64,000 bases of DNA, taken from Escherichia phage AV119. Positions within the stretch are counted from its first letter, which is position 1, and each line of letters begins with the position of its first letter. The translations under genes and the position numbers were made by a program. Shown here one piece after another: positions 7,225-44,011 of the stretch. The notes under the pieces were generated by a model. That model searched no databases. It saw only the letters and a program-made list of their open reading frames with translations, and was not told where the DNA came from. The stretch is from the sequence record OR352949.1; one strand, given 5' to 3'.

Positions 7225-7451
7225 TGGAAGGTTTAATTGAAGCTATTAAATCAAACGACCTCGTAGCCGCTCGTAAATTATTTGCTGAAGCCATGGCTGC
7301 AAGAACGACTGATTTAATCAAAGAAGAAAAAATCACTATCGCTCGTAATTTCTTAATCGAAGGTGAAGAACCTGAAGATGAAGATGAAGATAGCGATGAT
7401 AAAGACGACAAAAAAGACAAAGACTCTGACGAAGACGAGGATGATGAATAA
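7224..7451 (+). CDS. 67: prohead core protein gp67 (acidic C-terminus)
   Basis: 75 aa, poly-D/E tail; position between 20 and 68. Confidence 0.85.
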
Positions 7452-11021: not shown

Positions 11022-12305
11022 ATGGCTAAAATCAACGAACTTCTGCGCGAATCAACCACAACGAATAGCAACTCAATCGGTCGCCCAAATCTCGTTGCTT
11101 TGACTCGCGCTACCACTAAATTAATATATTCTGACATTGTAGCAACGCAAAGAACTAATCAACCTGTTGCTGCTTTTTATGGTATCAAATACCTTAACCC
11201 AGACAACGAATTTACATTTAAAACTGGTGCTACTTACGCTGGCGAAGCTGGATATGTAGACCGAGAACAAATCACAGAATTAACAGAAGAGTCTAAATTA
11301 ACTCTCAATAAAGGCGATTTATTCAAATATAATAACATCGTTTATAAAGTATTAGAAGATACTCCATTCGCTGATATTGAAGAAAGCGACTTAGAGTTAG
11401 CTCTTCAGATTGCAATTGTTCTTTTAAAGGTTCGTCTATTTTCTGACGCAGCGTCAACAAGCAAATTTGAAAGCTCTGATAGCGAAATTGCGGATGCTAG
11501 ATTTCAGATTAATAAATGGCAAACCGCGGTTAAATCTCGTAAACTTAAAACTGGTATCACAGTTGAATTAGCGCAAGATTTAGAAGCAAATGGATTCGAT
11601 GCTCCTAATTTCTTGGAAGATTTGCTTGCAACTGAAATGGCAGATGAAATCAATAAAGACATTCTGCAGTCTTTGATTACAGTGTCAAAACGCTATAAAG
11701 TTACAGGAATTACTGATAGTGGATTCATCGATTTGAGTTATGCATCTGCTCCTGAAGCTGGTCGTTCATTATACCGAATGGTATGTGAAATGGTTTCGCA
11801 TATCCAAAAAGAATCAACTTATACAGCAACGTTCTGTGTTGCTTCAGCTCGTGCCGCTGCGATTCTTGCTGCATCAGGTTGGTTAAAACATAAACCAGAA
11901 GATGATAAATATCTTTCACAAAATGCCTATGGGTTCTTAGCTAATGGTTTACCGCTTTATTGCGATACTAACAGCCCATTAGATTATGTAATCGTTGGCG
12001 TAGTAGAAAATATCGGTGAAAAAGAAATTGTTGGATCAATTTTCTATGCTCCGTATACAGAAGGTCTCGACTTAGATGACCCTGAACATGTAGGTGCATT
12101 TAAAGTTGTGGTTGATCCAGAAAGCTTACAACCGTCTATCGGTTTATTAGTTAGGTATGCTTTATCTGCAAATCCTTACACCGTAGCAAAAGATGAAAAA
12201 GAAGCAAGAGTAATTGATGGTGGAGACATGGATAAAATGGCGGGTCGTTCAGATTTGTCCGTTTTATTAGGTGTTAAGCTACCAAAAATTATCATTGATG
12301 AATAA
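11022..12305 (+). CDS. 24: capsid vertex protein gp24
   Basis: 427 aa as T4 gp24; gp23 paralog fold; late promoter upstream. Confidence 0.95.
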   Translation: MAKINELLRESTTTNSNSIGRPNLVALTRATTKLIYSDIVATQRTNQPVAAFYGIKYLNPDNEFTFKTGATYAGEAGYVDREQITELTEESKLTLNKGDLFKYNNIVYKVLEDTPFADIEESDLELALQIAIVLLKVRLFSDAASTSKFESSDSEIADARFQINKWQTAVKSRKLKTGITVELAQDLEANGFDAPNFLEDLLATEMADEINKDILQSLITVSKRYKVTGITDSGFIDLSYASAPEAGRSLYRMVCEMVSHIQKESTYTATFCVASARAAAILAASGWLKHKPEDDKYLSQNAYGFLANGLPLYCDTNSPLDYVIVGVVENIGEKEIVGSIFYAPYTEGLDLDDPEHVGAFKVVVDPESLQPSIGLLVRYALSANPYTVAKDEKEARVIDGGDMDKMAGRSDLSVLLGVKLPKIIIDE

Positions 12306-12336
12306 AACAAAGGGACCGAAAGGTCCTTTTTATTTA
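12305..12336. terminator. bidirectional terminator between convergent gene 24 and rnlB
   Basis: aaagggaccGAAAggtccttttt. Confidence 0.7.
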
Positions 12337-12386
12337 GCTCACCAACTCAATCCAAGCAGGACGAAGTACATCTTGTACCATTTTAA

Positions 12387-13337
12387 CTAATTCTTTTTAA
12401 CCAAAGAAGGATTATCCGCTTGAGTTAGAGTAATACCTTCACGAGAAGTTTCTTCCAAAATATCTTGAACAGTTAATCCCATCACCTTTCCAAAATCTTT
12501 TGGACCAATTTCGCCAATTTTGGAAATAACGTTATTTACTCGGTTCAATGTAACATAACAAGCTAAAATTCCAACCAATTTGTTATCAGCTTCTGACAAT
12601 TCAACTTTAGCTTTAATAGGCTTATCAGACTTTTTCTTTTCACTAAATTTAGAATTCTTGCATTTGATGGCCACACGATTGCGATTAGGCAGCCAAGAAG
12701 GATAACAAGGTTTCAATACATATCCTTCAGCAGTAAATACTTCGCCTTTTGCTTCGGCATTCCAAACGCATTTATTTGCATCAACTAATCCAGCATGGTC
12801 TACTGTAAAATTATAATCTTGGACGACAGAATCTAAATCATTTGGCAATTTAATAAGCTCTTCAAATTTACCGCGACCTAAAAGTGGAGCCATTTTAAAT
12901 TTAAATGTATTACAGAATGATTCCATCATATAATCATCGACATAAGTCACATCACCGCTTTCTGTAGTGACAATAATGTCAAATACATAAAAATCTTTAT
13001 CACCATAATCAACATTCTTCTGAATGCCAGGTCCAGCGAATTCGCCAAAGACTTGATAAGATACAACCGCTGAAGTTTCCATAATATCTTGTACTGCTTT
13101 AATGGAATCAGCGTAATTCTTTAGAATAATTTCATACCCAAAGAAATCTTCAGCAGGAAGAATAGGACCAGTACGTTTAGCGCAAGTTACTTTATCACGC
13201 TCAATAATCAATGAGAAATTTGTGCCGTGAATCTTTTCACGAGCTACCCATTCACCGCCAGTCAATCCCAAGCTATAAAGTTTTTCAATAAATTTAGAGT
13301 TGTAATGATTTTCAAGACTGCTATACTTTTTAAACAT
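12387..13337 (-). CDS. rnlB: RNA ligase 2 (Rnl2), 316-aa reading frame truncated by an apparent 1-nt deletion in an A-run near the 3-prime end
   Basis: N-terminal nucleotidyltransferase motif KIHGTNFS; alternate frame from 12393 continues [20 protein letters not shown] to a stop at 12334-12336 just before the terminator, restoring a 334-codon gene. Confidence 0.85.
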
Positions 13338-13916: not shown

Positions 13917-15047
13917 TTATGGATAGGTATAGATGATACCAGTTTCTAAAGCAGTTTTATGAATGATGTATCCATTACGTGATTCTTGAACATCAACTTC
14001 TGGATAGTCTTTCATCATCTTCTGAAGAGTGTAACGATGCAGGTAATATTTACTATCTGGATCGTCAGTTTTCCAATCTTTACCTTCTTCAGTCATTTTT
14101 TGGATTTCATCCATAACCCACCAACCGCACCAGATGTAAGCTGAAGTACGGTGTGGAAGAGGATGAACATAAGGCAATTCACCTTCTGGTTCCGGAGCAA
14201 CTTTATCAGTCACTTGAACTTGACCTGTTGTTTTAACTGTTTTGCTATCATAATCAGTTGCTGCAACGACAGCAGTAACTTCAATAGTTTGACTTCCAAC
14301 AGATGAGGTATCGACAGTATATACGTTAGTTGACCCTTCTACAGGAGAAGAATCTTTCTTCCACGAGTAAGTAATTTGTGCTTCTTCTGGAGCATCCGTA
14401 ACATTAGCAGTAAATGTAGCCGAAGCATCTTGCTGAACGTTAATAGAAGGAGGAGTCAATGTAACCTGTGGATTCATTGTCTTCTTATTAACTGTCAATG
14501 ATACTTCATTAGAAGTAACTTCCTTTTCATTGTAATTTTCTGCTGTTACTTGGGCTACGCATTTAATTCTTTTTACTCCACTTGTAGTTGGAGTATAGCT
14601 AAATGTAGAGCTAGTTTCTCCACCAACTTGTGAATCATCTACATACCACTGATACGTAGCAGATGCTCCATCAGGTTGAGAAGCTAAGGCAGCAGTAAAT
14701 TGAACTGGGGTTCCAATTACTCCAGCTGAAGGACTAGCAGGAGTTACTGCCAATGTAGTTGTCTGAGTTTTGTTTTTGACTGTGATAGTTGTAGTAGCTT
14801 CTGCTGTTTCAGCTTCAGATTCTGGAACTGTATTTGTTGCAACAACTTTAATAGTCTTTTGACCAGCAGGACCTTTTAATACATAATCAAAAGTTGCTTC
14901 AGACCCATCTTGTGGAGCATTATCTACACTCCAAGCATAAGTAATAGTTCCACCTCCAGTTTCACCACTAGGTGCAGCAGTAAACTGCTTGGTTTCATCA
15001 ATAACTCCTGACGGTGTTTTAGGAGTTATATCAACTGTAAAAGCCAT
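13917..15047 (-). CDS. hoc: highly immunogenic outer capsid protein Hoc (Ig-like repeats)
   Basis: 376 aa as T4 Hoc; T/V-rich repeated beta-rich segments. Confidence 0.9.
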   Translation of the reverse strand: MAFTVDITPKTPSGVIDETKQFTAAPSGETGGGTITYAWSVDNAPQDGSEATFDYVLKGPAGQKTIKVVATNTVPESEAETAEATTTITVKNKTQTTTLAVTPASPSAGVIGTPVQFTAALASQPDGASATYQWYVDDSQVGGETSSTFSYTPTTSGVKRIKCVAQVTAENYNEKEVTSNEVSLTVNKKTMNPQVTLTPPSINVQQDASATFTANVTDAPEEAQITYSWKKDSSPVEGSTNVYTVDTSSVGSQTIEVTAVVAATDYDSKTVKTTGQVQVTDKVAPEPEGELPYVHPLPHRTSAYIWCGWWVMDEIQKMTEEGKDWKTDDPDSKYYLHRYTLQKMMKDYPEVDVQESRNGYIIHKTALETGIIYTYP

Positions 15048-41742: not shown

Positions 41743-42245
41743 TTAAAAATATTTTTTAAAACTCATCATAACTTTATCATCAACATCATTATCAATCTGT
41801 GCTACAAGGTAAGATGACAGTTCTACTTCTTGCGGTGCAGATTGAACATTATCAGAATTAAGATATTCACGAATCCAAGGATACGGATGTTTAACCGGAG
41901 CATCGGTAATTGGGCATGGAAGACCACATTGTTTCATACGAGATACAGTTAAGTAATCAATAAAGCTCCACATGCTATTTGTATTTAATCCAGGAACATC
42001 GCCGTCTTTAAATAAATGAACTGCCCAATCTTTTTCTTGGCGGTTAACTTCCATGAAAATATCAACTGCTTCTTGTTCACACTCTTGAGCAATTTTAACC
42101 CATTCATCGCCATCAGTACCGGATTGAAGTTGACGAATAATATATTGAGTGCCTTTAAGGTGAAGCTGCTCATCACGTGCAATGAACTTCATAATCTTGG
42201 CATTACCTTCCATGATTTCCATGTTCTTATGGAAGTTAAAGGTAC
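41743..42245 (-). CDS. nrdB: ribonucleotide reductase small subunit NrdB, exon 2
   Basis: splice junction completes Cys codon (t + gt) giving SFAC-TFNFHKNMEIMEGNAK...RDEQLH, matching class Ia R2 spacing. Confidence 0.85.
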
Positions 42246-42380
42246 CGTATGTTCGATTGAGCTCGCTAATTCTCAACCCGTTCTCTTATGAACTGCTGCA
42301 TGTTACCATGCAGTCCAGACTATATCACAATCCCGGAGGGATTCTCCCCATTTCGAGTCGCTTGACCCTACGTCCGAAGA

Positions 42381-43190
42381 CTAGTCGTTGAACCTTGTTT
42401 TGCAATTGTCGCCGTGCCATCGTTTATATGTTGATGGTGATAAATCTTTCTTACCACAATATGGACAATTCAATTGAATTCTATTTGGATTTAATTTACA
42501 TCTGTCATTATGTTTTAGATAAAATCCAGGACCTTTACCAATGTGACCACAGAAATCACATGTGATTTCTTTTTGTGCAGGATGGGTCCCGTTCTTAACC
42601 ATTTCTAATGTTTTTGCTGATGTTCTTTTCTTATGGTCTTCTGATAAGAAATGATGTGAACCGTCATTTACCCGTTTTGATTGAGTTTCTGACTGCATTT
42701 TACCACCGCAAAATACATGAGTACCTTCTTTTATAGCTGCAATATTGCGTTCTTTAACTTTTGCAATATGCTCAGCTTGTTGAAAATTATGTATACCTAA
42801 TGCAACTCTATTTAAATTAGATTTACGCTGTATTTCACCATCTAAAAGATGAAATGTACCATTTTCTATCTTAGATTTAATAGAGGCAATATTTTTAGCT
42901 CGTACTTCAGGGATATTAAAAATCTGGATTTCTCTAGATTTTGCGGCTTTAGAAGCTAATTCAGAAATTTCTTCAGGAGAATATTTCATTCTAAGCTTTA
43001 TAGCATGACAAGCCTGATAATCTTTTTGAGCTAAATGTATATCATAATGTTCCTGTATAGAAAGGCACATCAAATTATCTAAATCATTATTTTCACGGTT
43101 ACCGTCTTTATGATGGATTTCGTATGTTCTTCCATCAGAATCTTTAGGTATAGGTCCGTTAGCATCTATCCAAATTTTTCTATAGTTCAA
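42381..43190 (-). CDS. intron-encoded HNH homing endonuclease (I-TevIII-like, 269 aa)
   Basis: inside intron; EIHHKDGNRENNDLDNL HNH motif; TATAAATA 28 nt upstream. Confidence 0.85.
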   Translation of the reverse strand: MNYRKIWIDANGPIPKDSDGRTYEIHHKDGNRENNDLDNLMCLSIQEHYDIHLAQKDYQACHAIKLRMKYSPEEISELASKAAKSREIQIFNIPEVRAKNIASIKSKIENGTFHLLDGEIQRKSNLNRVALGIHNFQQAEHIAKVKERNIAAIKEGTHVFCGGKMQSETQSKRVNDGSHHFLSEDHKKRTSAKTLEMVKNGTHPAQKEITCDFCGHIGKGPGFYLKHNDRCKLNPNRIQLNCPYCGKKDLSPSTYKRWHGDNCKTRFND

Positions 43191-43217
43191 TTGTGCATCC
43201 TCTTAAAAGTATAATCA

Positions 43218-43225
43218 TATTTATA
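43218..43225 (-). promoter_or_regulatory. late promoter inside the nrdB intron driving the HNH ORF
   Basis: minus-strand TATAAATA 28 nt before ATG 43190. Confidence 0.65.
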
Positions 43226-43335
43226 TTATACTAATTAAAGGTGCAAGCAAAACCTTGGCTGCTAGTTTTCCTATAAAGGACTTTCCAGCAATTAAAGGAG
43301 TTTTCGATAAACGTTACCGTTTAAAGGCGCATTTT

Positions 43336-44011
43336 ACGCAAAAGATACATAAAAACGAATAGCTTCCAATGCGTTGATTACATGGAGGCAAAGGTAAAGA
43401 GATTTCATTAAAGCACGTTTAGCTTCGGCTTCTTGTTTAATAGCTCGGTTTAAACGAAAGACGGCATCAGGAGATTCTTTAGCTAGTTCTACAAATTCTT
43501 TAGCATTTTCCCATTCACGGGTTTTAATCAGAACATCATCATAATAACGTCCAATGGATTCAGCACGTTTCATAATAGCTTCATCTAATACAATTTCATC
43601 AAATACCTTCGATGGATCAGTATAAAGATTTCGCATGATATGAGTATATGAACGACTGTGAATAGTTTCACTAAAAGTCCATGTAGCAACCCATGTATCA
43701 AGGCTTGGGTCTGAAATTAATGGCATAAGTACAGCAGACGGCGCACGACCTTGAATACTATCAAGTAATGATTGATACTTCAGATTATTAGTAAAAATAT
43801 TTTGTTGATACTGAGGAAGCTTATTAAATTGAGTAGCATCCATCATTAAGTTTACTTCTTCAGGACGCCAGAAAAATGACAACTGCTTTTCGGTTAAATC
43901 TTCAAAAACTTTATGACGTTGAATATCATAACGCGCAATACCAAGACCTGAACCAAAAAACATAGGTTCTTTTAAAACATCAACTGGATTTGTATTAAAA
44001 ACTGTGCTCAT
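43336..44011 (-). CDS. nrdB: ribonucleotide reductase small subunit NrdB, exon 1
   Basis: 225 codons ending ...LEAIRFYVSFA; R2 signature. Confidence 0.9.

Follow-up and report, generated by a model that had tools for sequence, protein, structure and literature searches.

A probable one-nucleotide deletion truncates the RNA ligase 2 gene (rnlB) of Escherichia phages AV119 and AV120

Introduction

RNA ligase 2 (Rnl2) of bacteriophage T4 is the product of rnlB (24.1), a gene that is held to be non-essential. The N-terminal domain of the enzyme alone carries out step 1 (ligase adenylylation) and step 3 (phosphodiester formation at a pre-adenylylated nick), and the C-terminal domain (residues 244-329) is required for step 2, the transfer of AMP to the 5'-phosphate, as well as for the binding of nicked duplexes (PMC3884662, PMC3149579). 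Internal contacts, R266-D292 among them, keep the C-terminal domain intact (PMC4599027).

Shifts of reading frame during translation have been described in detail in E. coli, where A_AAG is the most shift-prone tetramer and A_AAA_AAG is the site of dnaX (PMC5009743). Without a stimulator, tetramers shift at about 0.15% against a background of 0.11%, and heptamers reach at most about 10 times a background of 0.055% (PMC4066793). In E. coli, mutants with a 1-nt deletion are rescued by the C_AAA_AAA sequence of pDEST17 (PMC1851650).

Here we analyse rnlB in a stretch of 64,000 nucleotides from Escherichia phage AV119 (OR352949.1), referred to as a whole as the window. A first-pass annotation, made from the sequence alone, had seen a one-base frameshift close to the 3' end of the gene and had offered three explanations for it: a real truncation, a homopolymer sequencing error, or slippage-dependent expression.

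Results

The rnlB locus

By megablast, the window matched Escherichia phage AV120 (OR352950.1) at the same coordinates. AV120 is a Tequatrovirus that originates from Danish pig waste and was isolated on E. coli ESBL197. The features of the region are collected in Table 1. The gene under study corresponds to the one encoding T4 Rnl2 (rnlB/24.1; PDB 1s68, 2hvq, 2hvr and 2hvs): it is the same gene, at the same genomic position and convergent with gene 24, and the genes lying upstream of it (24.2, 24.3 and hoc) follow in the same order as in T4. Its 316-aa product is annotated in OR352950.1 as 'RNA ligase' (WPK36502.1).

Some other differences between the window and its relatives were recorded. 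The hoc gene encodes 376 aa, as in T4; in G4507, the closest relative, it encodes 472 aa with an additional N-terminal segment, a length polymorphism of this decoration protein. A gene for a prohead core protein shows an in-frame deletion of 12 nt in an acidic GAT/GAA-rich repeat when compared with G4507 and UTI-E4. The nrdB gene is split by an insert of about 1.1 kb that is absent from G4507 and UTI-E4 and that carries an ORF of 269 aa with an HNH_3 endonuclease domain (PF13392). We take this insert to resemble the group I intron found in nrdB of T4, with a homing endonuclease of the I-TevIII type in full length; an Rfam scan of positions 11000-45000 at the gathering threshold gave no match, and thus no group I intron, the nrdB insert included.

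Table 1. Coordinates of the features of the rnlB region and of other features of the window
Feature	Coordinates	Strand	Remarks
Gene 24	11022..12305	+	Capsid vertex protein, 427 aa; intact; convergent with rnlB, common terminator
Terminator hairpin	12312..12326	.	Bidirectional intrinsic terminator between gene 24 and rnlB; annotated as a terminator in G4507
Second deletion (terminator stem)	12325/12326		One G lost
Orphaned 3' coding remnant	12334..12393	-	-1 frame; 19-residue tail and ancestral TAA (12336-12334)
Premature TAG stop	12387..12389	-	Produced by the frameshift
Truncated rnlB ORF	12387..13337	-	316 aa: residues 1-315 native, then a frameshift-encoded Asn
rnlB deletion site	12393..12398	-	A5 run (12398-12394) and one remaining G (12393); GG in relatives
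rnlB codons 217-219	12681..12689	-	P217 and R219
hoc	13917..15047	-	376 aa
Prohead core protein gene, 12-nt deletion	~7373..7388		In-frame
nrdB	~41746..44011	-	Split by an insert
nrdB insert	~42244..43336		About 1.1 kb
ORF of the nrdB insert	42381..43190		269 aa

Probable loss of one G in rnlB

The 3' end of the gene was aligned with T4 and the closest relatives. T4 reads ATT AAA AAG GAA TTA and the closest relatives GTT AAA AAG GAA TTA; the window reads GTT AAA AAG AAT TAG. T4 and the 7-8 aligned relatives thus have either A5-GG or AAGAAGG at the site, where the window has A5-G, and the indel falls at nucleotide 945 of T4 rnlB, in codon 315 (at the boundary between codons 315 and 316). The missing base had initially been taken for an A of the A-run, with an alignment to T4 rnlB proposed as the check. 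This alignment ruled out the loss of an A and showed that a G is missing after the A5 run: adding an A would indeed restore a 334-aa protein, as had been stated, but the base actually lost is a G. The remainder of the initial reading held, since the 316-aa ORF does end in ...NPSLVKKN before a TAG stop, and the 3' end of rnlB is truncated by a one-base frameshift relative to an intact form that has 334 aa as in T4. Loss of one G of the GG doublet brings the TAG into frame two codons further on and gives rise to a 316-aa Rnl2.

The coding sequence beyond the stop was also recovered. As the first-pass annotation had proposed, the tail continues in the -1 frame up to a TAA near the terminator hairpin; in tblastn comparisons with intact relatives, residues 315-334 mapped to 12396..12337 in the adjacent frame with 100% identity. 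Because the protein encoded by this orphaned remnant is still fully identical to the tail of the intact relatives, the lesion would, judging from the sequence, be either very recent or an artefact. When all ORFs of two close relatives that reach 80 aa or more were compared with the window by tblastn, rnlB was the sole gene of the 64 kb whose halves lie in adjacent frames, and the split is therefore no chance ORF artefact. The split of nrdB was set aside in this screen, as it results from the insertion described above and involves no frameshift.

A second deletion in the terminator

A further private 1-nt G deletion, missed in the first-pass annotation, was found in the stem of the terminator shared by gene 24 and rnlB, where AAAAAGGGACC is changed into AAAAAGGACC (GGGACC to GGACC). 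It lies 68 nt from the rnlB deletion, and both occur in a T-AAAAA-G[G] context. Within the phage collection this terminator variant was present in AV120 only. With the G lost, the predicted energy of the stem on the rnlB strand is -10.4 kcal/mol instead of -15.0, and on the gene 24 strand -14.0 instead of -17.7. This costs the hairpin about 4 kcal/mol compared with its ancestral form; it still folds (z = -3.2 and -4.8), and the element retains the hallmarks of an intrinsic terminator, namely a hairpin flanked by A5 on one side and by a T-rich run on the other. Candidate explanations for two clustered private G deletions are a single local event of mutation or repair and local trouble with the reads close to the hairpin.

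What remains of the Rnl2 protein and what is lost

Residues 1-315 of the window protein differ from crystallised T4 Rnl2 (2hvq/1s68) just by R217P, G219R and I313V (E = 2e-212). Residues 1-216 are identical to the T4 Rnl2 crystal chains and include motif I (E34-K35-I-H-G, with K35 in KxxG). The PF09414 match extends over residues 29-226 (E = 6.5e-23), the motif V lysines K225 and K227 are present, and all the nucleotidyltransferase motifs are retained. Just upstream of motif V, the window carries P217 and R219. Gly219 is invariant in 34 divergent Rnl2 cluster representatives, and R219 occurs widely among T4-like phages whose rnlB is intact (ECP52, G4507, AV121 and a G8-like contig). We considered R217P and G219R as possible errors and rejected this idea, since many intact T4-like genes, and IMG/VR contigs too, carry the P217/R219 allele; a CCG-to-CCT change was likewise rejected as an error, as this third-position site is polymorphic.

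At the other end of the protein, the window Rnl2 stops at residue 315 followed by an Asn, whereas T4 Rnl2 continues to residue 334, and most of the last helix of the C-terminal domain is absent. The complete four-helix domain (244-329, with the end at about 334) is thus not present, the stop coming after residue 315. The PF18043 profile (T4_Rnl2_C) matches residues 246-316 over profile positions 2-75 of 82, compared with positions 2-81 for the intact protein. In an AlphaFold model built with an alignment of 34 homologs (mean pLDDT 85.8, about 90 for the C-terminal domain; best PDB matches 2hvr, 2hvq and 1s68), the helices of this domain span residues 249-259, 264-274, 279-299 and 310-333. From the fourth helix, the last of the domain, the frameshift hence deletes 18 of 24 residues, R326 and W329 included, and it leaves the first three helices in place. 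R326 and W329 are invariant across the 34 homologs (55-91% identity), all of which end within three residues of S334, and the last 19 residues show a conserved amphipathic pattern in these same homologs.

Rarity of the short form

The distribution of the lesion was studied in several collections. Of 514 similar records in the phage collection, 513 are set apart from the window by an indel within the 221-nt 3' region. When a query spanning the junction was used, AV120 gave the only ungapped match, and the 27 other records with the GTT AAA AAG allele were intact. The deleted allele did not turn up in IMG/VR, JGI metagenomes or GTDB genomes when these were scanned for the exact pattern; for IMG/VR this negative result is weak, as a widened pattern yields just four contigs with the intact allele there.

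The short form is also exceptional at the protein level. The 90% protein cluster has 625 members, and most of the 15 that are listed have 334 aa. According to the first-pass annotation, a set of homologs all ending at the short form would have spoken against a lesion. This is not what we observed: of the best 120 homolog clusters, 112 are 330-341 aa long, with two longer and six shorter, and PF09414 and PF18043 occur together in 119 of these 120. By tblastn, at least 80% of T4 Rnl2 is covered in 1301 of 1306 records, and homologs with identities as low as 37% (37-45%) align as far as residues 329-334.

Discussion

We think it quite likely that AV119 and AV120 share a genuine, recent and lineage-specific 1-nt deletion in the dispensable rnlB gene. 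The two phages (hosts ESBL146 and ESBL197, respectively) are distinct isolates, each of 169,342 bp (PMC10844046). An exact-sequence look-up linked two accessions to the 316-aa protein, WPK36226.1 from AV119 and WPK36502.1 from AV120, so that the truncation was obtained twice. The AV phages were sequenced by Illumina MiSeq (2x250) from Nextera XT libraries and assembled de novo with CLC (PMC10844046). Private differences at G:C pairs had led us to suspect nanopore errors at modified bases (glucosyl-hmC), an explanation ruled out by the use of MiSeq.

The opposite reading, which we hold to be unlikely, is that the phage really has GG in rnlB and GGG in the terminator, that its rnlB is intact and encodes 334 aa, and that the consensus lost a G at two neighbouring sites. 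The proximity of the two 1-nt deletions, in the same A5-G[G] context and next to a GC-rich hairpin, speaks for it: two private deletions so close to each other would be expected by chance in about 0.2% of cases if independent, which may point to a read or assembly problem. However, the indel rate of Illumina is low, and the runs concerned are just G2/G3 and A5. An artefact would also account for an orphaned tail that has suffered no further damage and in which the ancestral peptide is perfectly encoded. Furthermore, the allele is known from one study, with one laboratory, one pipeline and one sample type, which makes a shared systematic or procedural error possible, and we infer that tagmentation of glucosyl-hydroxymethylcytosine DNA may cover it unevenly. 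Against an artefact, the same 316-aa product came from two phages that were isolated and sequenced separately, and in AV121, which passed through the pipeline of the same laboratory, rnlB is intact with 334 aa and the identical terminator context (AAAAAGGGACC) was correctly read. The rest of the window bears on the same question. When indels were compared over the 64 kb, with G4507 and UTI-E4 as the closest relatives available in full length, the rnlB and terminator deletions were the only private 1-nt indels of the first 25 kb. No other frame-breaking indel was seen within the 64 kb, 21 other AAAAAGG/CCTTTTT sites are kept, and among the AAAAAGG-type sites of the relatives the terminator one was the sole length change. 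Taken together, two isolates, Illumina data, the lack of another frame break, 21 intact sites and the correct reading of AV121 make a random sequencing error very unlikely and a context-specific systematic error unlikely. With the duplicate in AV119, these points leave a real truncation as the best supported of the three explanations offered initially, and a homopolymer sequencing error as less likely.

The third of these, slippage-dependent expression, would combine a real deletion with a meaningful -1 shift at U_AAA_AAG, so that truncated and ancestral full-length Rnl2 would both be made in a compensatory or regulated manner. On the mRNA GUU AAA AAG AAU UAG, a slip of tRNA-Lys from AAG to AAA would put GAA next and restore the ancestral ...VKKELVKM..., and the shifted product would give the tryptic peptide MVQDVLRPAWIELVS. 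We regard this as very improbable. It is true that the shift needed is exactly -1, that the zero-frame stop lies two codons on and that the shifted product would be wild-type; the site also holds A_AAG and six of the seven bases of the dnaX heptamer A_AAA_AAG, but its first position prevents full re-pairing in the P site. Stimulators of the dnaX/IS type, such as an SD-like element some 10 nt upstream or a stable structure 5-8 nt downstream, are lacking: no SD-like element was found in the upstream sequence GCGGATAATCCTTCTTTGGTT, the nearest hairpin, 14 nt downstream, is weak (6 bp), and the regional fold has an ordinary energy (z = -1.14). Moreover, the AAA AAG codons are ancestral rather than a product of recent selection, a slip of this kind in the intact relatives would be abortive, and the two frames occur in this arrangement in AV119/AV120 only, so that it is not conserved. 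As there are no stimulators, no conservation of the arrangement and measured efficiencies well under 1%, frameshift rescue probably concerns less than 1% of ribosomes and would be at best a trace by-product and no programmed device. Slippage at the level of transcription was ruled out, an A5 run being too short for it to be appreciable. When compared with dnaX-type -1 sites and with compensatory frameshifting at A_AAG, the window resembles them in that the one tRNA-Lys of E. coli decodes AAA AAG and in that the shift required is -1. It differs in that the dnaX heptamer starts with A and the window site with U, and in that the window has neither a correctly spaced SD-like or hairpin stimulator nor conservation. 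A related scenario has, in our estimate, slightly less chance still of being right: mostly Rnl2tr-like Rnl2 (see below) with a small but sufficient full-length share made through a compensatory -1 shift, the terminator deletion possibly belonging to the same adaptation. If true, an RNA-repair gene of a phage would here offer a naturally occurring indel accompanied by compensatory frameshifting.

Taken as genuine, the deletion is an unremarkable lesion of one lineage in a dispensable gene, and no new mechanism is involved. AV119 and AV120 both plaque on many hosts. The phage would tolerate the truncation as it can do without rnlB under the conditions in which it was isolated, which we infer because the isolates plaque widely and because other T4-like records carry a broken rnlB. 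The lesion thus adds one more case of a T4-like phage viable without an intact rnlB. It also calls for caution with annotation, as WPK36502.1 and WPK36226.1 are called 'RNA ligase' despite missing a conserved C-terminal helix.

The consequences for the enzyme may be compared with those known for the engineered Rnl2(1-249), commercially 'Rnl2tr'. Like the window protein, Rnl2(1-249) is defective at the C terminus and has a whole adenylyltransferase domain; it performs steps 1 and 3, and neither step 2 nor nick sealing. Loss of most of the last helix would destabilise or disable the four-helix C-terminal domain, and the protein would then behave like Rnl2(1-249). The 316-aa Rnl2 is thus predicted to adenylylate itself (step 1) and to seal a pre-adenylylated nick (step 3). 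Because of the Rnl2(1-249) data and of the conservation of the lost part, we expect it to be defective in step 2, nick binding and overall nick sealing; as regards the sealing of RNA nicks, the allele would be null or a strong hypomorph. Unlike Rnl2(1-249), the natural allele retains three of the four helices of the C-terminal domain (249-299), and its product may misfold rather than act as a clean deletion of the domain. Characterisation of the 316-aa enzyme would tell whether step 2 depends on the last helix and its R326 and W329, a result of use mainly to those who study RNA ligases or produce ligase reagents.

Other T4-like phages provide the closest parallels for the gene itself. In ECO4 (MF001360), residue 212 of rnlB is replaced by a nonsense codon; in UTI-E4 (OL870317), the gene has an additional T in a T-run at codon 97, and in T2 (MH751506) it shows two 2-nt deletions, in codons 5-6 and 321-322; the RnlB of SV76 has 200 aa. 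This pattern suggests a recurrent loss of rnlB or recurrent errors in the records, and some of these lesions may be errors. Still, it is consistent with a gene that laboratory hosts allow the phage to lose without harm to growth, which agrees with rnlB being regarded as non-essential. As in AV119 and AV120, the lesions of ECO4, UTI-E4, T2 (MH751506) and SV76 are lineage-specific and found in viable phages, each of a different site and type. The lesion of AV119/AV120 is the most distal of them all, and 94% of the protein is kept.
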